This document shows, piece by piece, positions 3,235 through 64,000 of a DNA stretch of 64,000 nt. Made by a program: the position numbers and the translations under genes. Location of the stretch: the sequence record NC_047885.1. One strand, 5' to 3'. Source of the stretch: Escherichia phage chee24. Position 1 is the stretch's first letter, and each line of letters begins with the position of its first letter. Below the pieces are notes generated by a model. The model did not search any database. It saw nothing but the letters and a program-made list of their open reading frames with translations, and was not told the origin of the DNA.

Positions 3235-6024
3235 GTGTTTTCAATCCTACAAGGTCATGCAGGATTTCATCGCGATTTAGCCACAGGCAATTGGCGAGAA
3301 GTTAAAGCAGAAGATTATCTTTTTGCTAAAAGATTTTCCTCAAAGCATCCTGAAGGTAAACCAGCTTCAATGCCCTTCAAGTTTGATGTAATTGACGAAG
3401 TTGATCCTCAAACCCTAGTAGAAATGCTTCCTCTTATGAGACGTTTAACGTCTGACCCTCATATCGTTGCGGTACGAGGTCGATGTCTTGCACCTAAAAA
3501 TAATGTGCGACGTAAGAAGGGCAACTTTAATGTATCTAATCCAAGTCATATAATCGCAATGGATGTGGATGGTATTGTAGATACAGGAGGTTGTAACAAG
3601 TTTGATCTTGTTGGCATGGCGCGTCATATTATTAGGATGTTGAATAGTATTAGTGAGGATATGTTTCCTCTTGATGCAGGGTTTATTGCTCATGCATCAT
3701 CTTCGGCTGGACTAAAACCAGGTATCCGAATGCACTTAATACTAGAATCTAATGTTAAAGTTACACAGGGCCAGATCAAGTTCTTATTTACATCTATCAA
3801 CGAAAGTAGTAGACAAAAGTATGGTTTTGATATTGCCGACTTAGCTTATTACTCTTCCGTACAGCTCCACTATTTTGCAGATCCTTTATTTACTGATGGT
3901 ATAGTTGATCCGTTTAAAGCGGAGAGTGCTTCACGTCTGGTATTTGTTAAAGGCTCAAAAGTAAATTTACCTAATAATCTAGTTGACTATGAAACAACTA
4001 GAGGAGAGTTTAAAGAGGAATTCTACTCTTTACTCGATCAAATTAAAGGTAAAAAAGCTGCCTCTGATAAAGTAGAGGAAACTATCAGTGAGCTAGAAGA
4101 GGCTGATGATGGGGTATACTTACGTATTATTCCAAAGCTATATCACCGAGCGTTAGAGGATGGGGTAGATTTTGGTTGGCTAGAGAAAGAAATCCGCCCA
4201 GCTTTATCAGAATATATTGCAACTAAAGATAATAGCCGTAATATTCAGGATTATTTCAATAACGGACGGAAGCAGGCATTAAAAGCCTTTGTGAATAACT
4301 CTAAGCGTGAGATCCCTGAAGTATTAAAAGGTATCCCCCTTAAAAAGCTAGAAACTAACTCACTAGAGACCGACAACTTCTTGAAATTAAATACTGTACC
4401 ACCAGAAGGCTATATGACTTTTGTAAAAGCAAGTCTAGGTACAGGTAAAACCACGGCTGTTGTTCGTTGGCTGGATTCAGGGGTTATTAAAGGTAATTTC
4501 TTAGCAATTACCAATACTAGGGCACTAGTGTCTTCAAATGCTAAGAAATTTAGCGCAGGTCAATATGATAAATCTGTAGATATGCTCAACTTTAAACGTG
4601 GGGCTATTGATCGTATGTCCACAACCATTCACTCTTTGCATAAGTTTAAGAGTTTTATTGGTCAAATTGATGCAATCTTTATAGATGAATGTGATGCAGT
4701 AATGAATGACCTATTATTCGCCCCGGTTGTTAAGCAACGTCGCGAGTGTATTCAGGTTCTTCGAGATATTCTTGCAACTGCAAAAATAATTATATTATCT
4801 GATGGAGATATTAGTGCAGAAACAATTGAAGCATATGGTTCTTTGATTGAGTTTGATAAACCAGTTGCATTTTACAATCACCACCGTAAAATGTTATCAA
4901 AGGCTCATGCTTATGAGTTTCCTGATGAATCCAGTATTTGGGTTGCACTTCAAACATCACTAGAGATGGGTGAGAAATCTATTCTAGTATCTGATTGTGG
5001 CCCTGATGAGCTGAATGAGAAGGGTATGGCACTACGTCGTAATACTGGTGCGTTAGTTAAGGAAATCCATTCAAACTCTACCTCAGATGTGGATATTCGA
5101 CGTATTCTGGATTATACAACTAATGAGCTAATTGATCAACAAATTGATTGCTTATTATGTAGTCCATCCGTAACGAGTGGTGTTGACTTCAACTATTTTG
5201 ATAACGTATTCGTTATTACTAGAACCAGTAATCAAGCGCCAAACATGCGTTTTCAAGCAATCAGGCGCGACCGTGGTGCTCAGAACATCTATTATTTTAT
5301 TGATAAATCCACTAGTGGATTCTCCGCAGGTTCTGAACAATATAATATTGATGAAGGTTGGCTGGAGTTAGCACAGCAATTATACGCACGTCGCAGGGAG
5401 CTGGAATCTAGAAACTATACTAGTACCTTACGTTATTACTTGCTTGATCAGGGTGCAACTATTGATATTTTCAGCGAAAGCTGGGGAACTATTGAAGGTG
5501 CTGGTAAAGAGTACACAGAAGAGCGAATCAAAGCTATTCTACATTCAACCCCGGATTATTGTGCTCCACGTCATGCGGATGCGTATGAAGCTAAACTACT
5601 TCTTGTTCGCTATTATCATCTTGAGTCTATTAAAGATGTAACAGTTGAGCATGTTGAACAATATATCAAAGATAAACCGAATGATCGAGCTGCATTCTTC
5701 CATAAGATGCACGAGATGTTCTGGGAAGATATTAAGAAGTGTTCAAATATAACCATTAAACCATTCATAGAAGCTCTAAAAGGTAAGAAAAAGGACTTCT
5801 TCCTTAAAACAGGTCAGAGTGCTAACCCAAAATATGCTAGAATGTATCTTGGTATGATGGGTATCGGTAAGGATATGAACACTGAAAATATCGTAGACTG
5901 GTATAGAACCTACTGCAAAATCGAGTGTATGCCAATTCCTTATAAGTTCATGACTGATGAGGAAAAACATATGCACGATGAAGCAATGTCAGAACTAGGT
6001 GCTAGAAATGACAGTGAAGAATAA
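3235..6024 (+). CDS. replication protein: AEP primase-polymerase-like N-terminal domain fused to a P-loop helicase/ATPase (origin-binding-protein-like)
   Basis: Longest ORF begins at TTG 3157; the likelier start is GTG 3235 (AGGAG 7 nt upstream). N-terminal HIIAMDVDG (AEP DxD-like) and AHASSSAGLKPGIRMH; Walker A SLGTGKTT and Walker B IFIDECDAV mid-protein. Confidence 0.6.
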   Translation: MFSILQGHAGFHRDLATGNWREVKAEDYLFAKRFSSKHPEGKPASMPFKFDVIDEVDPQTLVEMLPLMRRLTSDPHIVAVRGRCLAPKNNVRRKKGNFNVSNPSHIIAMDVDGIVDTGGCNKFDLVGMARHIIRMLNSISEDMFPLDAGFIAHASSSAGLKPGIRMHLILESNVKVTQGQIKFLFTSINESSRQKYGFDIADLAYYSSVQLHYFADPLFTDGIVDPFKAESASRLVFVKGSKVNLPNNLVDYETTRGEFKEEFYSLLDQIKGKKAASDKVEETISELEEADDGVYLRIIPKLYHRALEDGVDFGWLEKEIRPALSEYIATKDNSRNIQDYFNNGRKQALKAFVNNSKREIPEVLKGIPLKKLETNSLETDNFLKLNTVPPEGYMTFVKASLGTGKTTAVVRWLDSGVIKGNFLAITNTRALVSSNAKKFSAGQYDKSVDMLNFKRGAIDRMSTTIHSLHKFKSFIGQIDAIFIDECDAVMNDLLFAPVVKQRRECIQVLRDILATAKIIILSDGDISAETIEAYGSLIEFDKPVAFYNHHRKMLSKAHAYEFPDESSIWVALQTSLEMGEKSILVSDCGPDELNEKGMALRRNTGALVKEIHSNSTSDVDIRRILDYTTNELIDQQIDCLLCSPSVTSGVDFNYFDNVFVITRTSNQAPNMRFQAIRRDRGAQNIYYFIDKSTSGFSAGSEQYNIDEGWLELAQQLYARRRELESRNYTSTLRYYLLDQGATIDIFSESWGTIEGAGKEYTEERIKAILHSTPDYCAPRHADAYEAKLLLVRYYHLESIKDVTVEHVEQYIKDKPNDRAAFFHKMHEMFWEDIKKCSNITIKPFIEALKGKKKDFFLKTGQSANPKYARMYLGMMGIGKDMNTENIVDWYRTYCKIECMPIPYKFMTDEEKHMHDEAMSELGARNDSEE

Positions 6025-6241
6025 AAAATGGGAAACAAGGAAGTTTCCAGTGAAAGAGCGTAAAGTTCCTGTTTATGATACTTCGGAAAAGCTATGTAGG
6101 GTGGTACCACATAGATTAGCTGGTATCCCTAACATATCCGAGTGGTTACTTAAACAACGGAGGACTAACGTATCTCTTCGCATAGGGTTTGAGTTAGATA
6201 AAGTATATGCTGAACTTTCTTCTTTGCTCAAGGAATCGTAA
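6008..6241 (+). CDS. hypothetical small basic protein
   Basis: ATG at 6008 preceded by AGGTG; overlaps the 3' end of the upstream gene; lysine/arginine-rich; ends just before the PN25-like promoter. Confidence 0.3.
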   Translation: MTVKNKKWETRKFPVKERKVPVYDTSEKLCRVVPHRLAGIPNISEWLLKQRRTNVSLRIGFELDKVYAELSSLLKES

Positions 6242-6249
6242 AAATTTAT

Positions 6250-6278
6250 TTGCTTTCAGGAAAATTTTTCTGTATAAT
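6250..6278 (+). promoter_or_regulatory. strong early promoter, T5 PN25-like
   Basis: AAAATTTATTTGCTTTCAGGAAAATTTTTCTGTATAATAGATTCATAAATTTGAGAGAGGAG: AT-rich UP, -35 TTGCTT, 17-nt spacer, TG + TATAAT; matches the PN25 promoter as I recall it. Confidence 0.75.
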
Positions 6279-6309
6279 AGATTCATAAATTTGAGAGAGG
6301 AGTTTAAAT

Positions 6310-7014
6310 ATGGCTGGTTCTCGCAGAAAGAAACATATCCATGAAATCCCTGATGAAGTCTTTAAAAAAGTTATAGAGCATCTGGAGAACGGTGGTACCA
6401 AGAAAGCAGCTTGTGAAATGCTCGGCGTATCATCCAATCCAACTATGGAAAGGATGATTGAAGAATGGCAAGATCGCCAAATTCAAGTTGCCGAGATGAA
6501 GAAAAAGAAACGTGGTACACTCATTGAAGGTATTGAGTTGGCCAACGTTATTGAACAGTATCTATCTGGCGATTCTTTTGAAGAGATTGCCGATCGTAAT
6601 TACCGCTCTGTAGCAATGGTTAAATCTGTTCTGGAACGATATGGTGCTCTACTTCGTTTGAACGATATTGTAGACCCATTGAATCCTCCAATTATCCCTG
6701 ACGATGCTGTAGCAGAAGAATTTGAAGTTGGAGAACTAGTTTGGGTTCCTGGATACCAGTGTATCGGTGAAATCAAAAAAGCAATGGATAATCCTGTTGG
6801 TTGTTATCGAGTCTGGTTACTATCGGAAGGAAAACAACAGAACGTTCATTATATGAATTACGAGCTGGCTTCTGTTAAACATCTGGAAAAGTTAGGGGTT
6901 GACGTAAAATCTCTGGGGTACAAGTGGACTCGTGAAGAAGTTATTACGTTGATTAATGAAGCTGTTAAGGCTGCCTTGAAACTTGATAAAGAAAAAGGAA
7001 AACGCCGTGAGTAG
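6310..7014 (+). CDS. putative DNA-binding early protein (HTH-like N-terminus)
   Basis: 234 aa directly downstream of the PN25-like promoter with RBS GAGGAG; N-terminal segment GGTKKAACEMLGVSSNPTMERMIEEW resembles a helix-turn-helix. Confidence 0.5.
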   Translation: MAGSRRKKHIHEIPDEVFKKVIEHLENGGTKKAACEMLGVSSNPTMERMIEEWQDRQIQVAEMKKKKRGTLIEGIELANVIEQYLSGDSFEEIADRNYRSVAMVKSVLERYGALLRLNDIVDPLNPPIIPDDAVAEEFEVGELVWVPGYQCIGEIKKAMDNPVGCYRVWLLSEGKQQNVHYMNYELASVKHLEKLGVDVKSLGYKWTREEVITLINEAVKAALKLDKEKGKRRE

Positions 7015-7258
7015 ACTAACTGATTTACTTAAAGATGGAGAAGTAAAAACTCTGTATCGTAGAAGCTGGGATAATGATAATAATGGCTTAGTGTTACTAA
7101 CTTTAGATGCTGACTCGGATGTAGCTACTCAGCATACCTGGGTAGCCGGTAACTATCCATATAGCGAGGTTGTTTCATTAACAGTATGCGAAGCTATTGC
7201 AGACGATTGGGAGGTTGCCAGCATCGAGGATATGCTCGCTGTTGGCCTGGTGGAGTAA
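7007..7258 (+). CDS. hypothetical protein
   Basis: GTG start overlapping the stop codon of 6310..7014 (translational coupling); acidic 83-aa product. Confidence 0.4.
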   Translation: MSRLTDLLKDGEVKTLYRRSWDNDNNGLVLLTLDADSDVATQHTWVAGNYPYSEVVSLTVCEAIADDWEVASIEDMLAVGLVE

Positions 7259-7275
7259 CTACTTAAAAATTTCAG

Positions 7276-7304
7276 TTGCTTAATCCTATAATTCTTGATA
7301 TAAT
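7276..7304 (+). promoter_or_regulatory. sigma70-type promoter (TTGCTT-17-TATAAT)
   Basis: TTGCTT AATCCTATAATTCTTGA TATAAT with TG-extended -10; about 55 nt upstream of the 7362 gene. Confidence 0.6.
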
Positions 7305-7361
7305 ATTCTCATAGTTTGAAAGAACTATTCTGTTTAATTCTTAATTAAGGAAATATAAAAT

Positions 7362-7772
7362 ATGACTACTCCAACTCAGTGGACTGATGAACTGTTCGAA
7401 AAAATGTCTTCCGAATACGTTGCTCGTATGGAGCAATTCCCAGAGGATGAACGTCCGGGTGTTAGCATGGAAATTGTTAGCGAAATTGCCCAGGAAAACG
7501 GTGTAACTCCGAACGGTTTTCGTATGAAGCTAACTAAAGCAGGTATGTATATCAAGAAAGCTGCTGGCTCCGCTTCTAAATCTAGCGCATCTGCTGGAGA
7601 AAAAGCTTCTGGTGGTTCTCGTACTTCCAAAGCCCAAGCTCATGCCGATCTTCGTTCAGCATTCTCTGATGCTGGCCTAGCACCAGATTTTCTGGATGAT
7701 GCAATTATCGACAAACTGACCGGTAAAGCGGCTGCCCATCTTGCAGAAGCAATCCGAGCTATCACTAAGTAA
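7362..7772 (+). CDS. hypothetical early protein, probably abundant
   Basis: 136 aa; promoter at 7276-7304 and RBS AAGGA; codon usage enriched for host-preferred codons (CTG, CGT, GCT, GGT) against an AT-rich background; Ala/Ser/Gly-rich linker. Confidence 0.55.
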   Translation: MTTPTQWTDELFEKMSSEYVARMEQFPEDERPGVSMEIVSEIAQENGVTPNGFRMKLTKAGMYIKKAAGSASKSSASAGEKASGGSRTSKAQAHADLRSAFSDAGLAPDFLDDAIIDKLTGKAAAHLAEAIRAITK

Positions 7773-7808
7773 TTTTTAGATAAATCCACCAACAAAAGGA
7801 ACACAGTT

Positions 7809-8105
7809 ATGACCAAAGCTGAAATTATCGCACAATGTGAAAAATTTGGTGAGTTTTATCTTCATTACGAGAAACTTCGTCAGAAAGGAACCACGTACCT
7901 TCAGGGTACGATGGAATTTGATCCAGCCCAAGATAAATATCTGGCTGAGCGTATTAAACGTGAACGTATTCGTAAAGCGAAAGATGATGAAATCCTTGTC
8001 TTCTCTCGTACTAATGATAGTTTCCGTTTTATTCCTGTCGAGAAAGTCCGTCGTGTGACTAGCCTCCAATCAGAGTTAGATCGTGCTTCTCCAGTAGGCC
8101 GATAA
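7809..8105 (+). CDS. hypothetical protein
   Basis: 98 aa; RBS AAGGA; followed by a rho-independent terminator at 8116-8137. Confidence 0.5.
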   Translation: MTKAEIIAQCEKFGEFYLHYEKLRQKGTTYLQGTMEFDPAQDKYLAERIKRERIRKAKDDEILVFSRTNDSFRFIPVEKVRRVTSLQSELDRASPVGR

Positions 8106-8115
8106 GAAACCAATT

Positions 8116-8137
8116 AGCCCCTATATGGGGCTTTTTG
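8116..8137 (+). terminator. rho-independent terminator
   Basis: AGCCCC-TATAT-GGGGCT followed by TTTTT, just after the stop of 7809..8105. Confidence 0.55.
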
Positions 8138-8155
8138 TGTATTTGGGATATGTAA

Positions 8156-8464
8156 ATGAGCGAACAGGTAAATCAAAACTATGAAGGACACGTTGATGAC
8201 CAGTCCATCATACTTTGGGAGAAGGAGGGAGAACAAGTAAGATTAACAGTATCTGAATTTCGTGGGAATCTATACATGGGTATTCGTTACTGGCTTCTTG
8301 ATATTAATGATGAATGGTTTCCAACGAAATCTGGCTTCTCTTTTCCTTACACCCTAGAAACAACATCACAGCTTTTCTATGCGTTTACACAGATTCTTAG
8401 CGAATCTGAGGTTTTACATGAAGTACAGAAACGAGCTGAAGAACTCAAAGCCAAGAATGCCTAG
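8156..8464 (+). CDS. hypothetical protein
   Basis: 102 aa; stop codon lies inside the terminator hairpin at 8450-8477. Confidence 0.5.
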   Translation: MSEQVNQNYEGHVDDQSIILWEKEGEQVRLTVSEFRGNLYMGIRYWLLDINDEWFPTKSGFSFPYTLETTSQLFYAFTQILSESEVLHEVQKRAEELKAKNA

Positions 8465-8477
8465 TTCTTGGCTTTTT
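8450..8477 (+). terminator. rho-independent terminator
   Basis: GCCAAGAA-TGCCTAG-TTCTTGGC followed by TTTTTCTTT; the stop codon of 8156..8464 is in the loop. Confidence 0.6.
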
Positions 8478-8491
8478 CTTTATAAATGTAT

Positions 8492-8520
8492 TTGCTTTCA
8501 ACTCAGTTTTGTTATATAAT
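8492..8520 (+). promoter_or_regulatory. sigma70-type promoter (TTGCTT-17-TATAAT)
   Basis: TTGCTT TCAACTCAGTTTTGTTA TATAAT then ATTTATATAAATTAATGAGAGG downstream box. Confidence 0.65.
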
Positions 8521-8549
8521 ATTTATATAAATTAATGAGAGGATCAATC

Positions 8550-8750
8550 ATGGCAATGACAATAACACTTCCCAAGATTCAAGCAAAACTTAATCTACTT
8601 TCCACAGCACGCATTAATTATCAAGATAGCATAGGCACAGTAAATCAAAAGGTGTACAAAGATGCGTTCCTGAAAGAATCTGCTGATTTGATGGATATGG
8701 TTACACAATATAATAAAGAACTCAAGATGGAAATCGCCGATGATGAATAA
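8550..8750 (+). CDS. hypothetical small protein
   Basis: ATG at 8550 with RBS GAGAGGA (the track ORF starts at 8535, inside the RBS); downstream of the promoter at 8492-8520; overlaps the ligase start. Confidence 0.4.
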   Translation: MAMTITLPKIQAKLNLLSTARINYQDSIGTVNQKVYKDAFLKESADLMDMVTQYNKELKMEIADDE

Positions 8751-9714
8751 TGTAAAAGGCTTTATTAAGCGTTGTCAAGAAGCATATTATCAGGGTATGT
8801 CTTTAATCTCTGATGAGGAGTATGATTGCCTGGTAAAACGCTTCCCGTTAGAAGAAGAGATCGGGCCTAAGGGTGATATTCCACATCTGTATCGTATGTA
8901 TTCTTTACAGAAAGTTTATTATAATCGTGGAGATAAACCCCCGTTTAACCCGTTAGGTCAAGTAGAAACTGATAAGTTAGATGGTTGTGCAATTTCTCTG
9001 CTATATATTAATGGCGAATTTGTTCAAGCACTAACTCGTGGTAACGGTATTCTGGGAAATGATGTCACAAGCAACGTAAGATTGCTGAACATCCCTAAAA
9101 AGATTTCCCAAAAAGTACCTACTCAAATCACTGGTGAAGTTCTAATTACAAAAGAAGTAGAAAATAAACGTAATTTTGCCTCTGGCGCTATTAACCTCAA
9201 AGATAGTGATGATTTCGTACAACGCATTGGAGAAGGCGGTTTAATCTTTGTTGCTTACGGTATCCAATGTTCTGCTGAATCTGTAGGTATTACAGAAGCA
9301 TATTTAAAAGATATGCTTTGGCTAGAGAATGAGAACTTCTTAACAGTTGTTAATGTGCGTTCCTTTTTTAAATGGATTCCGACGGACGGTAAAGTTGTTC
9401 GTATTAATGACAACAACAAATTCTTCCGTGAAGGCTGGACTAATAAATTCCCTCGTGGAGCATTCGCCATTAAAGAGGATGAAGAAGGCGAGATTACAAC
9501 TCTTACTAAAGTTGAATGGCAGGTAGGGGCTTCTGGTAAAGTAACTCCAGTCGGTTATTTTGAACCAGTAATTATTGATGATGCTACAATTGTTAAAGCG
9601 ACTCTTAATAACGTTGATTATATTAACTCTCTTGATCTAGAGATCGGTTGCCAGATTCGAGTGATTCGTGCTGGTGGTGTAATCCCGTGCATAGTAGAGC
9701 GAGTATACGATTAA
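8740..9714 (+). CDS. NAD-dependent DNA ligase, N-terminal subunit (adenylation and OB domains)
   Basis: Block KLDGCAISLLYINGEFVQALTRGNGILGNDVTSNVR aligns with the bacterial LigA KxDG adenylation motif region; OB-fold-like C-terminus (IRVIRAGGVIPCIVE). Confidence 0.85.
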   Translation: MMNNVKGFIKRCQEAYYQGMSLISDEEYDCLVKRFPLEEEIGPKGDIPHLYRMYSLQKVYYNRGDKPPFNPLGQVETDKLDGCAISLLYINGEFVQALTRGNGILGNDVTSNVRLLNIPKKISQKVPTQITGEVLITKEVENKRNFASGAINLKDSDDFVQRIGEGGLIFVAYGIQCSAESVGITEAYLKDMLWLENENFLTVVNVRSFFKWIPTDGKVVRINDNNKFFREGWTNKFPRGAFAIKEDEEGEITTLTKVEWQVGASGKVTPVGYFEPVIIDDATIVKATLNNVDYINSLDLEIGCQIRVIRAGGVIPCIVERVYD

Positions 9715-9764
9715 TACATAACCCTTTGCTACCCATCTACCATATCGGAATTATAAAGTGGTTA

Positions 9765-9793
9765 TTGACATTTCCGCCGCTTAGGTATATACT
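9765..9793 (+). promoter_or_regulatory. consensus-like sigma70 promoter (TTGACA-17-TATACT) inside the ligase inter-subunit spacer
   Basis: TTGACA TTTCCGCCGCTTAGGTA TATACT; no substantial ORF follows before the next promoter. Confidence 0.55.
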
Positions 9794-9857
9794 ATTATCA
9801 TTCAGTTGAGGGATAGAAAGTTATGGCGAGGGTAAGCAAAGTTAGTTAAAATTGTAG

Positions 9858-9886
9858 TTGCTAAATGCTTAAATACTTGCTATAAT
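9858..9886 (+). promoter_or_regulatory. sigma70-type promoter (TTGCTA-17-TATAAT) for the ligase C-terminal subunit
   Basis: TTGCTA AATGCTTAAATACTTGC TATAAT then ATTTATATAAATTGATAAGGAAG. Confidence 0.6.
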
Positions 9887-9916
9887 ATTTATATAAATTG
9901 ATAAGGAAGAAATTTG

Positions 9917-10696
9917 ATGAAAATCGAAATTCCAACACAATGTCCCTCTTGTGGTTCTAAGCTAGATCTTGTCAACGGACAATTATTCTGTCGTAATAAG
10001 TCCAACTGTCCAGCGCAATCAAGTAAGTTAATTGAGAACTTCTGTACAAAAATGAAGTTAAAGGGCTTTGGCCCAAAAACTATTGAGAAGCTGGAGCTGA
10101 CGAAGATTTCAGAACTATTTTACCTAACCGAAGAAGATTTGGTTAGAGCCGTGGGTAGCAAGGTTGCCGCTAAGTTAATTAGCGAATTAAATAATAAAGT
10201 TCGCGGAGACATTGACTTTGGTTCAGTTCTCGGTTCTTTAGGAATCCCTCTAATCGGAGAGGTTGCAGCAAAGAAATTGTCCCAAAATTGCACCAGTTTT
10301 CAAGATGTGAGAGCTGATGGCAGAGCTGGAGAAAATTATAAAGCCTGGCTAAATTCCCCACAAGGCAAGGATGTTATCGAATTACCGTGGAAATTCACAA
10401 CTGGTATTAAAGGTGCTAAAGCTGAGGTCATCATCACTGATGGTCTAGTAGCCCAACCAAACGGAATAACGGTATGTATTACCGGATCTTTGCAAGATTT
10501 TGCAAATAGAACGGATGCAACAAACTATTTAGAAGGTCTAGGATATACGGTTAAGAAATCCGTTACCAAAGACGTCAAATACCTAATCTGTGAGGATGAA
10601 TCGAAGCGTTCTTCCTCATCTTATAAGAAAGCCGAAACGAATGGGATAGAAATCCTGTCGATTAAAGAACTATTGGAGAAAAATAATAATGTCTAA
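9917..10696 (+). CDS. NAD-dependent DNA ligase, C-terminal subunit (Zn finger, HhH, BRCT)
   Basis: CPSCGSKLDLVNGQLFCRNKSNCPAQ matches the LigA Cys4 zinc finger; GFGPKTIEKL helix-hairpin-helix; BRCT-like C-terminus (ITGSL...ILSIKELLE). ATG at 9917 with RBS AAGGAAG. Confidence 0.8.
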   Translation: MKIEIPTQCPSCGSKLDLVNGQLFCRNKSNCPAQSSKLIENFCTKMKLKGFGPKTIEKLELTKISELFYLTEEDLVRAVGSKVAAKLISELNNKVRGDIDFGSVLGSLGIPLIGEVAAKKLSQNCTSFQDVRADGRAGENYKAWLNSPQGKDVIELPWKFTTGIKGAKAEVIITDGLVAQPNGITVCITGSLQDFANRTDATNYLEGLGYTVKKSVTKDVKYLICEDESKRSSSSYKKAETNGIEILSIKELLEKNNNV

Positions 10697-50946: not shown

Positions 50947-52704
50947 TTAGGTAAGGCGTTGAACTGTTACTCTTAATCTAGGTAGGAAAACTGCGCTACC
51001 CAAACTCACGTGCATAACTACTCCTAACTCCACATTTCCATTTCCTAAATTTTTAATAGTGTATATAAAACTGTTTCTACTTAGAGCATTGTTAGGTGTA
51101 TATCTAAAAGCAGATGTAGTATGAAAAGGTACTAGATAGCCCACAGGTAGCGTTAAAATCTGGTGGAATATTGCATCCCCGCCGCTATAGCTATATGCTC
51201 TTCTTCCTTGCACTTGAAACACACCATTATTCCATGTATTAGCTGGAACACCCGCACAATTAAGATTACCTGATATAACTTCAGTAGTAAGAATTACTGT
51301 AGCATTTCCGCCTGGTATACCTAGCCCAATAGTTGATAAACCAACGTATCTATCACCCGTTCCTGGGTAGCTGGGAGTAATATCATCTCCCATATAAGAA
51401 CTACCTACATTTCCACCAAAAAGTCGCAGTGGAACTGCTGAGGGTCCCCAAACAACTCCATGCTCATTACCAATAGTATTATCGTTAGAGTTTACATACC
51501 ACTGTTTACCTACTCCGAATCTATAAATACTAATTTGAGATTTAGCTCCTCCATAATCTACAGGAGACCACAACCCTCCATTACTAGACCCTACAAGTTC
51601 ACATCTTGCCGTGGTATCACCAAAAACCCCGGTATACGCTGCGTTATTTCCTATATACTCCATATCAGGACGGTAACCTAGGTTACCAAAAGCATTCTGA
51701 TTTATAAATTTATATCCGGTATTAGGGAGACTCACCCCTTTAATTATGAAGTTAGAAGGCGATATAAGAATATCAGAACCAGTAAAGGGGTTGCCTGAAA
51801 TACTCATTCCACCATTAGAGTACCTTAAATTAAGAACATACCAAATAACCTTAGTAGGAGTTATATTATACCAGTCCTGTATTACCGTAGGATTGCCAGA
51901 CTGGTTGGCCAGATTAGTAGTAGATCCCCTACAAACAAATCTGTTCCCACCGTCGTGGTACATAGTATTTACATTACCTGGGAGCCCTTGCCTAACCCCA
52001 CCATATCCACGTATATTAGAATTGCAGACATAAAACCAATCATGCCCTCTATGCGCTGCTCCTAGAGGTGACATCCATCCAGGATCCCAATAGTACGGGT
52101 TATTGCCATCTATAGGTACTGTGCTACTATTAGTAGGAAAACCTAATTGTGCAAAAGCTTCTGCAACAGTAATACCTACAGGAGCTCCCGCACCGGGCCT
52201 AACTATCCCATGGTAGGTACTATGTAACGTAGTACCCCCTGTACCACTCCTAGAGATAGATTCTTCGTGCCCTAGAGAGGGATTATAATTATAAGTGCCG
52301 GATGCTAGACTATTACCAAAGGCAAATCCACTGGTTTGAGAAACACTAGCAAAAGATCTAAAGGGATCTGCTTGAGTGGCAACTATAGTTTGACCAACCT
52401 TACTCTGAGTACCATTAAGAAAAGCTCTGTGAGTGCCGTTAATTTCAATAGCAGTTAGTATAACTCTACCAGGATCATTAGATTTAATATTTACTATATC
52501 AGGAGGCATCTGACATACGAAAAACCCATTTCCGGCATCACCTAATCCTACCTCATAAGTACCATCAACTAGAACAAATGGCATATCACTATGAAAAATA
52601 CTATTGGCATTTGGACTATAGTGACGATTAATGTCACCACCAGATTCAGTATTTAAAGATAGTACGGTCTTACCATCGCTATATTTTCCAGCGAAAAAAC
52701 CCAT
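50947..52704 (-). CDS. receptor-binding tail protein (T5 pb5-like)
   Basis: 585 aa, Gly/Asn/Ser/Thr-rich beta protein; divergently adjacent to the llp-like lipoprotein gene, the conserved RBP/llp arrangement of T5-like phages. Confidence 0.55.
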
Positions 52705-57623: not shown

Positions 57624-58031
57624 TTATTCGCCTGCGGCTTGTTTTACTTCATCGGCAACGCCTAACAGTTGCGCCACGGCGTCCAGCGTTTCTAATTTTG
57701 CGCTTTCCAGCGATGCCAGATCGTCGGCGTCTTTGATAATGCCGGAATCAATAGCATGTTTAGCGATAACGCGCACATAGTGAGCCTTACGAATTGAACT
57801 GCCGCCGCCAACTTTGCGCGGCTTATCGCTTTTCTGGTACGCTTTTGCGCTGGTCAATTTTGAGCGAACAGACACGGGAGAAGCCGCACCAACTGTTTTT
57901 GCGATCTCTTTCAGGCCGTCGCTGTTGGCGAACTCCAAGCCGTTTTCATTGATCAACTGTTGATACATGGTAACAGCCTGCTGGGTGTTTTCTTCATTCC
58001 AAGAGAATTTTGCGGTTTTAGCGTTAGTCAT
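57624..58031 (-). CDS. hypothetical pre-early protein (A2 position in T5-like phages)
   Basis: 135 aa immediately upstream (- strand) of the A1-like gene; GC-rich codon usage; identification as A2 is by synteny only. Confidence 0.45.
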   Translation of the reverse strand: MTNAKTAKFSWNEENTQQAVTMYQQLINENGLEFANSDGLKEIAKTVGAASPVSVRSKLTSAKAYQKSDKPRKVGGGSSIRKAHYVRVIAKHAIDSGIIKDADDLASLESAKLETLDAVAQLLGVADEVKQAAGE

Positions 58032-58968: not shown

Positions 58969-59763
58969 ATCTGCGATTCCTTATAATGAATAAGTTTACC
59001 GCCGATAGACTTTAAGATATACCCAATTTTTAAAGAGCGCGGCGGTAAACTTCCCGCCGTGTAGTTCGTCATTGCCGCCCTACGTGATAAATAATAGGGT
59101 ATTCCCGAAAATGGCGCAACCTTATTTTTGTAAAGAAACGTAAAGAAAGCAACACGTTCGGCGCTCACCTAAGTTTAAAGGAAACGGGCGCGCGAATACC
59201 ATAAAACCAAGCAGATAGGCAAGTAATTTTTTCATTTATATTTGCCTTGCCCTACTTGACAAAATCTAAAAAGCTCGTGGTAGCGATAAACGGCTTATCC
59301 CCTTATGATGGGATGGCTAAAAACTTCATCGCGTTCTAGGACGTTTTAGGCGCATTCTAGCCTTGTTGATAACTTATCCCCAAAAGCAAAAATGAAATTT
59401 TCCTAGTTATCCACTTGACTTTTATTTTCCAGTGGATAACTACTTATTTTATAAAATTAATTAATTGACTTTTATTTGTTAGTGTGTATCGGAAAGATAG
59501 CAGACTAATAATTGTTAGGATTATAATCATGCTGGTGGATTGTAACAGCCTGAACTATTAGCAGACTATTAATCTCGGAAAATCTCATTAGCCAACTAAC
59601 TATTTCATATTATATAATATACATATAAATTAATGAGAAATAATAATTATAAGAAATCGTAACCGATAGAAATAATAACTACAAAAATAATCACCGTTAT
59701 AATAATAACGATAAGAAACTATCGGCCTAAGTGAGAACCACTATCATTTAAGTTATTCACAAA

Positions 59764-59833
59764 GTTATCCACAGCACAAAATGATTTGACACGATAGGCG
59801 GCGATATAAGGACTTATCCACAGACTTATCCAC
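59764..59833 (+). promoter_or_regulatory. cluster of three consensus DnaA boxes (TTATCCACA)
   Basis: Perfect 9-mers at about 59764, 59813 and 59825; further near-matches TTATCCACT / AGTGGATAA as an inverted pair at about 59407 and 59431. Confidence 0.5.
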
Positions 59834-59841
59834 ATGTTATC

Positions 59842-59861
59842 CTACTGTATATTTATACAGG
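59842..59861. promoter_or_regulatory. LexA (SOS) box-like palindrome
   Basis: TACTGTATATTTATACAGGG fits CTGT-N8-ACAG with AT-rich spacer; immediately downstream of the DnaA boxes. Confidence 0.45.
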
Positions 59862-60126
59862 GTAAAAAGGTAGTGTTAACAACTGCAATCAATTTTAAGC
59901 GGCCTAAAACGCTTTCTAACGAGCAAAACGCTATAGGGTAATATTAAAGTAAAGCCTCAACGCGTCGCCCTGGTGACTTCGCCGTGTTTTGCTCTTTACT
60001 ATACCGCTGCGCGTTTAACATAAAAATAAGCGTTAGGCAAGGAAAATAAAAAGGTAAAATAATATTTGCCCCTAGAAAGAAAATACCTTTATCATTCACT
60101 CACCGATTAACGAGGGAGGCCAACAA

Positions 60127-61119
60127 ATGCGGCTATATAAACCAGATAACGCAACCGTCTTAAAAGGTGCGTTGCGTAACCTGCTGGATGGTAGCAGAAC
60201 AACCAGCATTAAACATTTTGTTTTCAATATTGAAACACTTCATCGTAATTTTCTTGATGATTACGATGCTTATAATATGAATAGTTTTCTACCGTTATAT
60301 AATCAAGGGGCAACGCTTGTTTTATATAATCAGGAATCTCACTTGCTTACTAGTCGAGGGCCAGATACTGATTTTATTATAGTGAAAGGCAGTACAGTAA
60401 AAGCCTATGATGCGGGGGCGGGCTTAGAAGTTTTCACGATAGAAAATTATGAGCCTTATGATAAGGATCTTTATGACGTAGAAAATTTTCTCGATTCATT
60501 TTGGCGTTATTTATCAATTGGGTGGAATCGATCAGATTATCACGGGTATCGTTTTGCGGCTATAATGGCTTTTGATGATAACGGTAATTTTTTGCTACCG
60601 TCGGAATTATACCCGTATGTATATAATGATTTAATAGAGGAGGCTGGTTTTACTTTCTGGAAAGATGAAGATCAGCCTATTGACAACACGGAAAAACATG
60701 CTGTAAATTCTAACACTCAAAGCGTTAACACTCAAATTACTGAAAACAAAGGAAAAAATACCATGACCAAGATCGCTAATATCGTTGCCGCCAATAAGTC
60801 TGCTGTTGTAAATGCTGCAAAACTGGAAGCGGGTAAAATTGCATTAACTCAAATCACGAAAGTAGCGGCTAAAAAAGCGCCGTTTATGATTAAAGGTTAT
60901 ATTGATACGCCGATTGGTCGGGTAGTTATTGCCAACCTGCTGAGCGTAGCGGTTGACCAGTACGCCCCAGCTAACCAGAAAGCGAAAGCGGTAGCAGGTG
61001 CAGCTATGGAAGCGGCTATGTTAGAAATGGTGCAAAGTTTTAACATCGCTGAAATGATCGATGAAATGGTGAAAGGTATTGATATTTCTACTTTTACCAC
61101 TAGCACCGAAAGCGAGTAA
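60127..61119 (+). CDS. hypothetical protein (330 aa)
   Basis: Strong RBS GAGGGAGG before the ATG; first gene of the + strand operon leaving the DnaA/LexA-box control region; Ala/Lys-rich helical C-terminal third; no motifs recognised. Confidence 0.6.
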   Translation: MRLYKPDNATVLKGALRNLLDGSRTTSIKHFVFNIETLHRNFLDDYDAYNMNSFLPLYNQGATLVLYNQESHLLTSRGPDTDFIIVKGSTVKAYDAGAGLEVFTIENYEPYDKDLYDVENFLDSFWRYLSIGWNRSDYHGYRFAAIMAFDDNGNFLLPSELYPYVYNDLIEEAGFTFWKDEDQPIDNTEKHAVNSNTQSVNTQITENKGKNTMTKIANIVAANKSAVVNAAKLEAGKIALTQITKVAAKKAPFMIKGYIDTPIGRVVIANLLSVAVDQYAPANQKAKAVAGAAMEAAMLEMVQSFNIAEMIDEMVKGIDISTFTTSTESE

Positions 61120-61128
61120 TAATATTAA

Positions 61129-61150
61129 GCGGGGATTGTTACCCCGCTTT
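61129..61150 (+). terminator. putative terminator
   Basis: GCGGGG-ATTGTTA-CCCCGC followed by TTT ACTATT; weak U-tract. Confidence 0.45.
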
Positions 61151-61183
61151 ACTATTCCCTTGTTAATTAATAGGAGGCTAATT

Positions 61184-61678
61184 ATGCCAGAAGAAAAATA
61201 TGGCTTCTCACTGGGAGAAGTGAGTACGGCTAAACATGATATGATTGTTTTAGTCGATTGCCATACCGGTTATTGCGGGGAAGGGAATACTGAGGAATAT
61301 TTTGTTCCTGCTGGTACGGATCTCGACGCTTTCGCCCATGAAATGGCTGTTGATAATGCTTCTCGTTTTGGTAGCGATGGTTACGAAGACGAAGAAACGG
61401 GCGATTGGTATGAGAATGATAATGTATATGCAAGCCTTTATCATTATCAATTAAGTAAATCCGGCACATATGTAAACGGCGGTGATCCTATTAATTCCGT
61501 CATGAAATTAATTATTAAATATGGCGGCGTCGAGATAGTCGATAACAAAGCGGTAATATATGCAAACCGATTAAAACAGCTTGTTTATATCCCTGATAGT
61601 ACCCGATGGGAGGAATATGCTGTTTTGCATGATGAATTAAAACGATGTTTCAATATTGAAACCTTACAAGTAGTTTAA
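61184..61678 (+). CDS. hypothetical acidic protein (164 aa)
   Basis: ATG at 61184 with RBS TAGGAGG (track ORF starts at 61079); followed by a rho-independent terminator. Confidence 0.55.
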   Translation: MPEEKYGFSLGEVSTAKHDMIVLVDCHTGYCGEGNTEEYFVPAGTDLDAFAHEMAVDNASRFGSDGYEDEETGDWYENDNVYASLYHYQLSKSGTYVNGGDPINSVMKLIIKYGGVEIVDNKAVIYANRLKQLVYIPDSTRWEEYAVLHDELKRCFNIETLQVV

Positions 61679-61693
61679 TGTAAAGTTTTGTAA

Positions 61694-61722
61694 AGGCCGC
61701 CTCTTATGGTGGCCTTTTTTGT
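61694..61722 (+). terminator. rho-independent terminator
   Basis: AGGCCGCC-TCTTAT-GGTGGCCT followed by TTTTTTTG. Confidence 0.6.
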
Positions 61723-61786
61723 TATAATGCCTTTACACCGTTTAAGGACGGTTGAAAATTTTCCCAAAAAATTTTGGAGGCTTATA

Positions 61787-62017
61787 ATGGTTGCTTATTC
61801 TTCTTCTGACGCTCTTTTCACTGGAAAAGGCTGGGTATCAAATCGCTGGATCATTCAAGAAATGGTGCAAGAATATGGCATTGCTAAAACTTACACTACC
61901 ATTCAGGCGCTTTATGATAATGATCAAATTGATCAGCAAACGGCGGGCTTTTTGCTGGATACCCTAAAAGCGGAACACTGCACCAAAAAACAAGCTGCAA
62001 AAATTGTTTTAATGTAA
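61787..62017 (+). CDS. hypothetical protein (76 aa)
   Basis: ATG at 61787 with RBS GGAGG (track ORF starts at 61706, inside the terminator). Confidence 0.45.
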   Translation: MVAYSSSDALFTGKGWVSNRWIIQEMVQEYGIAKTYTTIQALYDNDQIDQQTAGFLLDTLKAEHCTKKQAAKIVLM

Positions 62018-62064
62018 TTAATAAAGGGGGATACTATATCCCCCACTAACTAGAGAGAATAAAA

Positions 62065-62211
62065 ATGGTTATTTTTCGAGCTATTCTAGCAGGTATCTTG
62101 GGCGCTATTTTATCACTTTTTGCAATAGCTTTCGGCGTTCACGCGGTTATTATTGGCGCGGGGATTGCCGTTTTTTCTTATCTGCTGGGCTGCATGAATA
62201 AAGGAGAATAA
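62065..62211 (+). CDS. small membrane protein (48 aa, two hydrophobic segments)
   Basis: Not in the ORF track. Translation MVIFRAILAGILGAILSLFAIAFGVHAVIIGAGIAVFSYLLGCMNKGE; stop closely followed by the RBS of the next gene. Confidence 0.35.
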   Translation: MVIFRAILAGILGAILSLFAIAFGVHAVIIGAGIAVFSYLLGCMNKGE

Positions 62212-62213
62212 AA

Positions 62214-62426
62214 ATGATCCGCAACGTTTCCCTTGCCCGCTCCAAAGGCTTTAAGCTGGTGGACGTTAACACGTTTGAGCGGGAGGATTGTAAAATCGAA
62301 TATGTAGCACGCAACAAAAATGCCTTTCGTGTTACAGAAAAGAAATTTGACAAGCGCGGCAACGTGATCGCTGAAACGGTTAAACACTTTGCCACCTTTT
62401 ACGCTGCGTTTCGTGGGGTGTTATAA
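62214..62426 (+). CDS. hypothetical protein (70 aa)
   Basis: RBS AAAGGAG 8 nt before the ATG. Confidence 0.45.
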   Translation: MIRNVSLARSKGFKLVDVNTFEREDCKIEYVARNKNAFRVTEKKFDKRGNVIAETVKHFATFYAAFRGVL

Positions 62427-62427
62427 A

Positions 62428-62772
62428 ATGGTTATTTATGAGGGCAATCGTTTTGTTGCTAATTGCCGTCCGGCATTACTAGCAAACTATTTAAATCAGG
62501 TTTCACCTGAATATAAAGGCGTCATTAATATTTACGAGGGTAAGGCGCACTATAAAATTAATGCGGTCGTTGCCCGTGAATTAGCATTTCAATTTTTGAC
62601 CTTTGCATCTTGTGACGTTCAGGTTATGGGTGAAGCATTAATTGCAGAAAATGAAGATGATTTTATTAATATTTTCCGCAAGATATGCACCGAGCGCCTG
62701 ATCATGAAAGGCGCATATATTCAATCCACTGCGGATAGCATTGAAACAGCGTTTCGAAAGGTGGCGCAATGA
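62428..62772 (+). CDS. hypothetical protein (114 aa)
   Basis: ATG at 62428 directly after the stop of the previous gene (track ORF starts at 62389). Confidence 0.5.
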   Translation: MVIYEGNRFVANCRPALLANYLNQVSPEYKGVINIYEGKAHYKINAVVARELAFQFLTFASCDVQVMGEALIAENEDDFINIFRKICTERLIMKGAYIQSTADSIETAFRKVAQ

Positions 62773-62927
62773 AAAAGTTTTTAATAGCTGGTATGTTTCC
62801 TTTGTTGCCTTATGTAATTTGCTGGGCTTTATACGCTCATGGTGCTAGTGTTCCCGGTGTGGCCTCGTTTGGTGTATCGGCTGGTTTTCTAACCGGACTA
62901 TTGGCAAGCGTATATCTGCGCAAATAA
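62769..62927 (+). CDS. small membrane protein (52 aa)
   Basis: Not in the ORF track. ATGA overlap with the upstream stop; translation MKKFLIAGMFPLLPYVICWALYAHGASVPGVASFGVSAGFLTGLLASVYLRK. Confidence 0.35.
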   Translation: MKKFLIAGMFPLLPYVICWALYAHGASVPGVASFGVSAGFLTGLLASVYLRK

Positions 62928-62945
62928 TTAATAACGGGAGTTATT

Positions 62946-63140
62946 ATGAGCAATAAAATTGTTGTAACCAAAATCAGTACAATGGTTGACGTTTTTTATG
63001 TGCCCGATACGCCGGAAAACCGGCAAGCGGTCGAGCGTGGCGAGTATGATAAAGTGATTTATGATCACGATGGTTACTATCAACATTTGGTGGATTCCTA
63101 CGGGGAGGGGGAAAAAATCACGCATCGACTACCAGACTAG
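62946..63140 (+). CDS. hypothetical protein (64 aa)
   Basis: RBS GGGAG; last ORF before the repeat-rich non-coding region. Confidence 0.45.
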   Translation: MSNKIVVTKISTMVDVFYVPDTPENRQAVERGEYDKVIYDHDGYYQHLVDSYGEGEKITHRLPD

Positions 63141-63180
63141 TAATCACGGGGGCGCAACTACCAGGGAGTGCCCCCAATTC

Positions 63181-63205
63181 TCAAATGAGAATGATTCTCA
63201 TTTGA
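63181..63205. repeat. 25-bp near-perfect palindrome TCAAATGAGAATGATTCTCATTTGA
   Basis: 12-bp arms around one central base; arm sequence AATGAGAAT recurs in the tandem repeats at 63520-63715 and in the element at 53955-54000. Confidence 0.6.
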
Positions 63206-63397
63206 CCGCGCCCGCGATGGTTAGCCTGCTAATGATTAGGGTGTTACGTGTCGCCTTGTGTGATCGTTAGCAGGCTAACTAATTTTTAAGCCTCCTCCAA
63301 TTTTGCCCTTGTTTTAGTATCCCCATCAAAATTAAACGCGTTAGAATGCGATTCAGGACGTTTTAGGCCTATATTAGAATTATTCACTACATAGGAG

Positions 63398-63417
63398 TAC
63401 TGTATATTTATACAGTA
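63398..63417. promoter_or_regulatory. LexA (SOS) box-like palindrome
   Basis: TACTGTATATTTATACAGTA: one mismatch to the E. coli LexA consensus TACTGTATATATATACAGTA as I recall it. Confidence 0.45.
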
Positions 63418-63425
63418 GAATAACC

Positions 63426-63508
63426 TGGGGATAAGTCTGTGGATAACGCCTCAAAATGGCTAGGATTCTGTCAAGTCAAATCGTGCTGTTGATAAGTCTG
63501 TGGATAAC
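63426..63508 (-). promoter_or_regulatory. DnaA boxes in inverted orientation
   Basis: Two copies of GATAAGTCTGTGGATAAC (reverse complement contains TTATCCACA) at about 63429 and 63491; the 18-mer TTATCCACAGACTTATCC is shared with 59813-59830 in opposite orientation. Confidence 0.45.
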
Positions 63509-63519
63509 TTAAATAACAG

Positions 63520-63715
63520 TGTTTCTCACTTCCATTTTTAAATGCGAATCATTATCATTTGCATTTCACTGTCTAACTGATAATCATTTCACTTTTTAAA
63601 TGAGAATCATTTCACTTTTTGAATAGTTCTCATTCCGCTTTTTAAATGAGAATAATTATCATTCGCATTTCACTTTTTAAATGAGATTGATTCTCATTAT
63701 CATTCGCATTTAGGC
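63520..63715. repeat. tandem direct repeats (core CTTTTTAAATGAGAAT) interleaved with ATTATCATTCGCATTTCACT units
   Basis: Five core copies at about 63535, 63593, 63616 (diverged), 63639 and 63673; three copies of the second unit. Confidence 0.6.
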
Positions 63716-63740
63716 GAGCAGGGCAATTGCCCTGCGCTTT

Positions 63741-63964
63741 TGTGCAAATCCGACATTGCTCCACGGGTGTTACGTGCGGGCGTGTATGTGCGAATCCGAC
63801 AATTTTTGGTAGTGTGCGAATCCGACCCGAAAAATTTTTATAGTGTGCAAATCCGACAATGAATTTTCCCAAAAACTCCAGCAATCTCGAACTGCGTTCG
63901 AATCCTGTGGAATTAGCTAGAATATGTGCAAATCCGACATGTGTTGAGATGTGCGAATCCGACA
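63741..63964 (+). repeat. iteron-like array: six direct copies of TGTGCRAATCCGACA
   Basis: Copies at about 63741, 63787, 63813, 63844, 63925 and 63950, all in the same orientation with irregular spacing; array reaches the window end. Confidence 0.65.
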
Positions 63965-64000
63965 AGATTTTTGTGACTTCGATTGGAGGGTGTGTGATTG

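Follow-up and report, generated by a model that had tools for sequence, protein, structure and literature searches.

A Tequintavirus pre-early gene block in Escherichia phage chee24, with a modular T5.011 homologue that may encode a nested second product

The eight small open reading frames (ORFs; O1 to O8, Table 1) examined here occupy positions 60127-63140 of a 64,000-nucleotide (nt) stretch of the genome of Escherichia phage chee24 (NC_047885.1), to which we refer as the window. They very likely form the rightward arm of the Tequintavirus pre-early, or first-step-transfer, region, a non-essential set of small accessory host-takeover effectors. As such the block is already known, as it is the T5.011-T5.017 region that has been studied before in phage T5. 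What our analysis adds is the modularity of O1, the T5.011 homologue, a putative nested product within it, a probable one-gene shift in the label of the nickase encoded in this region, and a structural model of O2. The nested second product that O1 appears to hold has not been described previously.

The identity of the block is established by its DNA. It is 100% identical to the T5-like phages pork29, saus47N, saus111K and poul124, all of them food-derived; pork27 differs from the region by about one base, many other Tequintavirus genomes are 90-92% identical to it, and the block DNA is kept in 448 phage records. Window positions 59400-64000 correspond to 5368-9968 of pork29, within the annotated 9968-bp terminal repeat of that phage, which places the block in the terminal repeat of a Demerecviridae genome. 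Since window position 52500 maps to position 109122 of the record, and the end of the window is the end of the genome, the copy in the window is that of the right terminal repeat. As in the T5 annotation, the block lies between a divergent promoter region and the injection stop signal (iss), with iss-type repeats starting at about 63400. The A2 homologue is found on the minus strand at 57624-58031 (ORF list and OSYSP annotation), so that the arm carrying A1, A2 and dmp diverges from the block. Six of the eight ORFs are orthologous to genes of the T5.011-T5.017 set, with 71-100% identity in translated searches (tblastn).

The block therefore shares with the T5 right arm (NC_005859, 6495-9157) its position in the repeat, its orientation, its promoter region, the inverted repeats that bracket it and the iss downstream; it differs in having O2 between the homologues of 011 and 012, in having O7 in place of T5.016, and in having no counterpart of hegG upstream. 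The same layout, with an O1 homologue first and rightward small ORFs after it, is present in Sugarlandvirus, Priunavirus and Serratia phage Kamaji. A plasmid or prophage replicon, which iterons and DnaA boxes had first suggested, was ruled out, as there was no plasmid match and the sequence is that of a T5-like terminal repeat. The first-pass annotation of this DNA had placed the block among T5-like pre-early genes, and both the identity with the pork29 terminal repeat and the synteny with T5 agree with that placement. Its description of the genes as uncharacterised and undescribed fails, because T5.015 has been characterised biochemically, each of the T5 genes has been expressed singly in two screens for toxicity, and hegG-017 have been deleted from T5.

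O1 is built of a variable N-terminal domain (residues 1-185), a linker rich in N, Q and T, and a conserved C-terminal helical module (residues 213-330). The protein belongs to Pfam family DUF7566 (376.8 bits against a cut-off of 27, model positions 5-336), and most of the distant members of this family match only the C-terminal ~120 positions of the model. An exhaustive HMMER search with O1 returned 680 clusters at 50% identity, and most of these match just residues ~200-328 of O1, always at their C-terminus and after unrelated N-terminal parts of 50-420 residues. Some of these N-terminal parts are HIRAN domains, whose fusions to the module make up more than 30 clusters of their own, and one is kinase-like. 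Within the T5-like phages, pairwise identity averages 66% (minimum 31%) in the N-domain as opposed to 96% (minimum 85%) in the C-module. The discordance is found at single loci as well, with 36% identity in the N-domain and 99% in the C-module at one of them (L027), and with values of ~64% and 97% between O1 and T5.011.

Polymorphic effector and toxin families combine one constant with one variable domain. The O1 family resembles polymorphic toxins in joining a near-invariant module to many unrelated partners, and in the sharp discordance of the two halves among close relatives. It departs from them in that it is the C-terminal module that stays constant and the N-terminal part that varies, in that its members are intracellular phage early proteins rather than secreted ones, and in that no immunity gene is evident. 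In profile searches of PDB sequences, none of O1, O2 and the O1 C-module had a match below E = 0.5, leaving the module with no relative there. An AlphaFold2 model of O1, made from an alignment of sequences at least 86% identical, was unusable (predicted local distance difference test, pLDDT, of 42), and three distant fusion proteins used as IMG/VR queries found no relatives.

Several further observations concern the O1 family. The pork27 record (MF431731.1) is one base shorter, and a truncated O1 of 253 amino acids (aa) is annotated in both of its repeats, owing either to a sequencing error or to a natural frameshift, the latter being in keeping with dispensability. HIRAN fusions to the DUF7566 module occur in three metagenomic phage contigs unrelated to T5 (L038, L039 and L040; 58-65% G+C, 52-93 kb), where they lie in long arrays of small unknown ORFs, and the genes nearby include ones for DnaJ-domain (L038, L040), acyl-carrier-like (L038, L039) and RdgC proteins. 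Homologues of O1 have been named 'putative DNA N-6-adenine methyltransferase' and 'replication protein / putative head morphogenesis protein' (JLBYU43, NC_105512.1; vB_Kpn_3, MZ079855.1), and nothing in this analysis backs these names.

Taken together, the spread of the module, the methionine at its boundary, a conserved Shine-Dalgarno (SD) sequence and ATG, and a trough in synonymous variation suggest that O1 holds an embedded regulatory element and an internal start that would give a product of ~118 aa, which we call O1C. The SD and the ATG at 60763 are invariant in all 23 distinct T5-like sequences, so that an in-frame start is conserved along with its spacing from the SD, as in a nested gene. 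An internal SD is kept at all five distant GenBank loci, changes in the peptide notwithstanding: GGAG in Sugarlandvirus, GAGGA in Providencia phage PR1, AGGAG in the Pseudoalteromonas myovirus J2-1 and, more weakly, AAGAG in Kamaji. AAGGAA-N6-7-ATG is present in three of three unrelated phage contigs of 58-65% G+C. As a background, an SD-like motif precedes 7% of the in-frame internal ATGs in the window. A methionine stands at the module boundary in 125 of 133 fusion representatives, where chance would give ~34% (a naive binomial probability of 1e-47, which ignores relatedness), and in 28 of the 33 fusion proteins of the HIRAN set; proteins of ~120 aa that start at this methionine also exist.

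The trough is the deepest in O1. It covers the -10 hexamer of the promoter-like element TTGACA-18-TAAATT and the first ~20 nt downstream of it, though the residues of the linker vary, which indicates selection at the nucleotide level upstream of the internal start. The promoter-like element is mostly retained in the 23 T5-like sequences (one of them, L029, has TACAAT for TAAATT), and J2-1 has a similar one, TTGACA-16-TAATAT. A tandem 11-mer, TAACACTCAAA, also occurs within the trough, twice, 16 nt apart, at 60711-60737; some relatives have only one copy, and the 11-mer might act as a leader element or be bound by a protein.

Three points count against a nested product. The match to a promoter is weak for such AT-rich DNA (23 matches, where chance would yield 14.9), some of the stand-alone module proteins of ~120 aa may have arisen artificially, through contig truncation or errors in gene calling, and a literature search found no proteomic, ribosome-profiling or transcription start site (TSS) data for the site at 60763. 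Neither Mahata et al. nor Annor et al., who studied the T5 genes, mention an internal start, and we found no TSS map that covers the site.

Nested in-frame genes that give a full-length and a C-terminal product are well known in phages, as in lambda C/Nu3, phiX174 A/A* and T7 gene 4A/4B, and in lambda C/Nu3 the long and short forms can co-assemble through the domain that they have in common. O1 resembles these genes in its same-frame internal SD and ATG and in the C-terminal domain that its two products would share; it differs from them in that its products are predicted only, and in its hypervariable N-domain, which changes with the lineage (HIRAN, kinase-like, unknown). The C-module of O1 is probably also made alone from the SD and ATG at 60763, possibly from the internal promoter; by analogy with lambda C/Nu3, we suggest that an assembly or targeting domain is then common to the short form and the full-length one. 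The HIRAN fusions, together with the effect of 011 on nucleoids (see below), would suggest that the site of action is DNA or the nucleoid. We give about even chances to the full form of this model, in which T5.011/O1 is a two-product gene, its module is a widespread scaffold or targeting domain of early proteins with swappable heads, and the short form co-assembles or regulates at the nucleoid. An internal element and start would also explain why wild-type 011 could not be cloned in pBAD24 and a recoded version could (Annor et al., 10.64898/2026.04.02.716235); wild-type 011 has been cloned in the lower-copy pBAD33 (Mahata et al., PMC8201957).

The conserved junction in O1 could, alternatively, be a recombination linker through which N-domains are swapped, and neither a promoter nor a leader, with the boundary methionine and the SD as relics of an ancestral separate gene. 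The joining of many unrelated N-domains to the same module would fit this explanation, as would the discordance of the two domains within the same phage, where N-domain identity falls to 31-36% and that of the C-module stays at 92-99%. However, a relic SD and ATG should decay, and here an SD-like motif persists despite changes in the peptide (AAAGGA, GGAG, GAGGA, AGGAG, AAGGA and the weaker AAGAG of Kamaji) across genomes of ~39% to 65% G+C; moreover, the trough lies upstream of the ATG and is not symmetric over the junction. We therefore regard relics of recombination as a rather unlikely account of the junction, and note that a recombination linker and a nested start are compatible with each other.

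A separate result concerns the nickase. T5.015 binds host uracil-DNA glycosylase (Ung) and nicks the abasic sites that Ung generates, leaving 3'-OH and 5'-deoxyribose phosphate (dRP) ends, with replication and division arrested as a result (PMC8201957). A 70-aa protein, T5.014, the counterpart of O5, bears the product name 'endonuclease nicking abasic sites generated by host Ung' in RefSeq (YP_006842.1) and in PHROG family phrog_4227. In UniProt and UniRef, by contrast, it is the 114-aa T5.015, the counterpart of O6, that is named 'DNA-(apurinic or apyrimidinic site) endonuclease'. O6 falls in a 90%-identity UniRef cluster named AP endonuclease, and the characterised T5 protein in a neighbouring cluster of the same name. 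We have little doubt that O6, 94.7% identical to T5.015 over 114 aa, is the nickase orthologue, and that the RefSeq and PHROG label is off by one gene.

That the label is right, and that the 70-aa O5 (T5.014) rather than O6 is the Ung-dependent nickase, is very unlikely. Beyond the product name itself, what speaks for it is that a second T5 record (UniRef Q5DMS9_BPT5) gives the 70-aa protein the name 'ORF015', a likely source of the slip. Against it stands the numbering of the two experimental studies. Mahata et al. (PMC8201957) cloned T5.002,.003,.005,.007-.009 and.011-.017, which are exactly the NC_005859 tags without dmp (.001), A1 (.004), A2 (.006) and hegG (.010). Annor et al. cite NC_005859, and their 013, a protein with two transmembrane segments, fits the same numbering. 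As both papers thus use the T5.0xx tags of NC_005859, T5.015 is the 114-aa gene. The homologue given as an example by Mahata et al., EFG4537521.1, also falls on the 114-aa gene by an indirect argument from accession arithmetic: EFG4537524.1 is an O2 homologue, and the 48-aa O4 is left unannotated in assemblies of the same period from the Prokaryotic Genome Annotation Pipeline (in the EBX series, O3 ends in 979 and O6 in 977; in the EFQ series, O3 ends in 420 and O8 in 417). O6 is thus the positional orthologue of T5.015, equal to it in length; it differs from the T5 protein in that its activity is predicted, and the public name sits on the neighbouring 70-aa gene. Searches of family databases and PDB sequences with O6 found no recognisable nuclease fold or family and no solved structure. 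The shifted name has apparently been carried into many phage records.

The T5 orthologues give the block its functional outline. In the screen of Mahata et al. 008, 011 and 015 were toxic (PMC8201957), and Annor et al. found 011, 013 and 015 toxic in E. coli, with uneven nucleoids for 011, lysis-like damage for 013, and elongation with guillotined nucleoids for 015 (10.64898/2026.04.02.716235). T5.012, the orthologue of O3, was non-toxic in both screens (PMC8201957; 10.64898/2026.04.02.716235), and 011 'resists functional predictions', according to Annor et al. (10.64898/2026.04.02.716235). A T5 mutant from which hegG-017 were deleted, and which keeps only 009, hdi, A2 and A1, is viable and forms smaller plaques (10.64898/2026.04.02.716235); the block as a whole is dispensable on the laboratory host. 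In the relative Bas33, pre-early proteins have been seen by proteomics (PMC13250531), and expression within minutes of infection, ahead of second-step transfer, is known for these Bas33 genes (PMC13250531) as for T5 P11 (PMC7472727). The toxicity of 011, 013 and 015 to E. coli makes host takeover a fair description of the region (PMC8201957; 10.64898/2026.04.02.716235).

With these data in mind, a course of events in chee24 may be proposed. The copy of the block in the left repeat, which is identical, would enter the cell and be transcribed from promoter P11 by the host sigma-70 RNA polymerase, and expression would last until the A1-dependent shut-off, a timing that is established in T5 and predicted for chee24. 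O6 would bind Ung and nick its abasic sites, arresting host replication and division, as expected from T5 at 94.7% identity. O1, with its fast-diversifying N-terminal 'head' and nearly invariant C-terminal helical module, would be toxic and disturb nucleoid organisation, and O4, a predicted two-helix membrane protein, could compromise the integrity of the envelope. O3, O5 and O8 are conserved members of the set, and O2, as well as O7 or T5.016, are swappable cassette genes.

Several considerations temper this reading of the block. The two screens conflict on 013, which was toxic in one (10.64898/2026.04.02.716235) and non-toxic in the other (PMC8201957), and the term 'host takeover' depends on toxicity upon over-expression. 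The phenotype of the en-bloc deletion is mild (smaller plaques), and it was seen in a mutant that also lacks dmp (10.64898/2026.04.02.716235). Activities and timing in chee24 are carried over by sequence similarity from T5 and Bas33 data, five of the eight products lack an assigned activity, and the cluster may not be a single transcript, given its internal hairpins and terminators.

The gene content of the block is mosaic. In a survey of 28 related loci, O5 and O6 are present and adjacent in all 28, O3 is found in 27, O4 in 26 and O8 in 24. At 12 of the loci there is an O2; O7, seen at 8 loci, and T5.016, seen at 7, share a single slot but are not found together at any locus, and the HNH endonuclease gene hegG comes and goes upstream. 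O2 has only 18 homologue clusters, the named members of which are all from T5-like phages of Salmonella and Escherichia. Its AlphaFold2 model is confident (pLDDT 87.9, predicted template modelling score 0.82), and a fold search with the model gave no match to a known fold. Some O2 homologues (P0095, P0096, P0098 and P0100) carry an insertion of ~17 residues with CPEC...C(E/P)DC, which is zinc-ribbon-like, and a T-G-x-C-G motif, usually TGYCGE, is invariant in all members of the O2 alignment.

Two other explanations of the block have been considered. In one, it is an anti-defence island: its conserved small proteins, and above all the cassette products O2 and O7 or T5.016, would block host immune functions such as restriction-modification, RecBCD or CRISPR. 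The well-known nuclease insensitivity of T5-like phages would be explained in this way, as they resist type I, II and III restriction and CRISPR outside the first-step-transfer DNA through a pre-early function that is unassigned (PMC10644984; 10.1101/866236). The strongly acidic O2 with no known fold, and a presence/absence pattern typical of counter-defence genes, would also fit, and the possibility was explicitly left open by Annor et al. (10.64898/2026.04.02.716235). Yet we found no experimental or homology support for such a role of any of the eight proteins. T5, which has neither O2 nor O7, is still restriction-insensitive, so these two genes are not the general mechanism, and O2 cannot explain traits that the T5-like phages all share. 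For the three genes that give phenotypes, the target is host DNA, the nucleoid or the membrane and not a defence protein. The anti-retron gene Rad of the T5 family, considered as a candidate for the block and ruled out, is ORF75 in the tRNA region. Family, PDB and fold searches, which included no dedicated anti-defence library, gave no match to characterised inhibitors. The literature search found no report of a phenotype on defence-carrying hosts for any gene of the block, the hegG-017 deletion having been tested on a laboratory host without added defence systems. An anti-defence role of the block is thus improbable and, as it stands, pure conjecture.

In the other explanation the genes are mostly passengers, and the arrest and restart of injection are under the control of cis-acting DNA, namely the inverted repeats with their DnaA boxes, the LexA-type palindromes and the iss repeats. 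Inverted repeats and pairs of boxes do bracket the block, and they are conserved though the spacing between them varies, as also described by Davison (10.1101/866236); for the smaller plaques of the minimal T5 mutant lacking hegG-017, its authors suggest that missing DNA sequences may matter (10.64898/2026.04.02.716235). Passengers would not be expected to behave as these genes do: the O5 and O6 proteins keep 87-100% identity over all 28 loci, synonymous turnover in the O1 C-module is normal and purifying selection on it strong, and three of the products give specific cellular phenotypes. We consider this explanation highly doubtful, even more so than anti-defence, and retain the reading of the block as a set of accessory host-takeover effectors.

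The features of the block are collected in Table 1. All eight plus-strand ORFs of the first-pass annotation were recovered with the lengths it gave when the ORF list was re-derived. Each of them matches a PHROG family (E = 1e-30 to 1e-172) and so, given also the number of phage records in which the DNA is kept, they are genuine genes and not ORFs that arose by chance. The start codon is ATG in all eight. Of the good ribosome-binding sites described earlier, those of O1, O2, O3, O5 and O8 are clear SD sequences of the GGAG/AGGA type, and those of O4, O6 and O7 are weaker; these three genes look translationally coupled. Tight packing is evident from the successive gaps of 64, 108, 47, 2, 1, -4 (an ATGA overlap) and 18 nt. 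The internal terminators were found as well, after O2 and, as hairpins, after O1 and O3. For this reason 'eight-gene operon' is right as to one co-oriented cluster and otherwise a simplification, with the internal hairpins and terminator acting as attenuators. A promoter for O3 at 61761-61788 was dropped, because its -10 hexamer overlaps the O3 ATG. The two small membrane proteins that had been proposed are O4 and O7 (grand average of hydropathy 1.73 and 1.06), each hydrophobic enough for two transmembrane helices. The statement that no motif could be assigned is correct in that no curated family gives a function, and incomplete in that O1 matches DUF7566, the only Pfam match; there were no meaningful NCBIfam or PADLOC matches among the proteins of the block, and no matches to PDB sequences.

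Table 1. Coding and regulatory features of the block and its flanks (window positions).
Feature	Position	Strand	Description
Inverted repeat, left arm	59729-59860	.	132 nt; 78% complementary to right arm; Davison's IRC-spacer-IRD (10.1101/866236)
Promoter P11 region	60043-60121	+	alignment with annotated T5 promoter 6411-6489
O1	60127-61119	+	330 aa; T5.011 orthologue (77% identity); Pfam DUF7566
Sigma-70 promoter-like element	60680-60709	+	TTGACA-18-TAAATT; 10/12 consensus positions
Synonymous-variation trough in O1	60691-60736	+	observed/expected 0.05-0.35, compared with ~1 elsewhere in the gene
O1C, putative nested in-frame ORF	60763-61119	+	118 aa; starts at Met213 of O1; AAAGGA 9-10 nt upstream
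G+C-rich hairpin after O1	61127-61149	+	T5 terminator annotated at equivalent site, 7534-7559
O2	61184-61678	+	164 aa; acidic, 29 D/E and 12 K/R; cassette gene, none in T5
Intrinsic terminator after O2	61692-61717	+	strong; 10-bp stem, then T-run
O3	61787-62017	+	76 aa; T5.012 orthologue (98.7% identity)
G+C-rich hairpin after O3	62026-62044	+	hairpin scan
O4	62065-62211	+	48 aa; T5.013 orthologue (71% identity, 11-aa indel); predicted two-helix membrane protein
O5	62214-62426	+	70 aa; basic, isoelectric point 10; 100% identical to T5.014
O6	62428-62772	+	114 aa; T5.015 orthologue (94.7% identity)
O7	62769-62927	+	52 aa; phrog_35622; predicted two-helix membrane protein; cassette gene, none in T5
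O8	62946-63140	+	64 aa; T5.017 orthologue (87.5% identity)
Inverted repeat, right arm	63400-63531	.	Davison's IRD'-spacer-IRC' (10.1101/866236); marks start of injection-stop-signal region (T5 iss annotation)

Upstream of O1, the last ~100 nt before the ATG align without gaps and near-identically to the P11 region of T5, a promoter shown to be pre-early in T5 by primer extension (PMC7472727); within the P11 region a consensus scan finds TTGCCC-18-TATCAT at 60066-60095. The block is bracketed by a pair of inverted repeats. The left arm holds paired DnaA boxes (59753, 59765, 59814 and 59826, spanning 59753-59834), and a perfect LexA-type palindrome, CTGTATATTTATACAG, occurs in the left arm at 59845-59860 and in the right arm at 63400-63415, so that the DnaA and LexA motifs previously noted upstream of the block are indeed there. 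For a LexA (SOS)-regulated operon a box overlapping the promoter would be expected, and none was found: the candidate palindrome lies ~282 nt upstream of the O1 ATG and ~185 nt upstream of the P11 region. Only four CTGT-N8-ACAG sites occur in the 64-kb window, and nearly all T5-like loci, Sugarlandvirus and Kamaji among them, keep the LexA-type palindromes both at about -282 relative to the O1 ATG and on the downstream side. In Davison's analysis of these repeats LexA is never mentioned (10.1101/866236).

The non-coding stretch between the LexA-type palindrome and P11 (~59905-60040) is ~99% identical to T5, and is thus conserved far better than the adjoining sequence that codes for the O1 N-domain; it matches no Rfam family, and its folding is unexceptional on either strand. 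Two sets of direct repeats are found in the injection-stop-signal region. The first, at 63523-63700, consists of six units of ~27 nt that are CATTTCACTTTTTAAATGAGAATCATT-like, partly palindromic and Fur-box-like in style, and the second, at 63739-63971, of six copies of TGTGC(A/G)AATCCGAC.

As a candidate region the block in itself adds little, since T5.011-017 have already been screened twice for toxicity and deleted from T5. The work on O1, in turn, maps out the domains of a large family of early phage proteins that is uncharacterised, and this, like the probable off-by-one nickase name found in RefSeq, PHROGs and the phage records so labelled, could be useful to those who work on T5-like phages. 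The cassette genes O2 and O7/T5.016 are the first candidates for host-specific or counter-defence roles, and this short list bears on the old question of how T5-like phages escape restriction.

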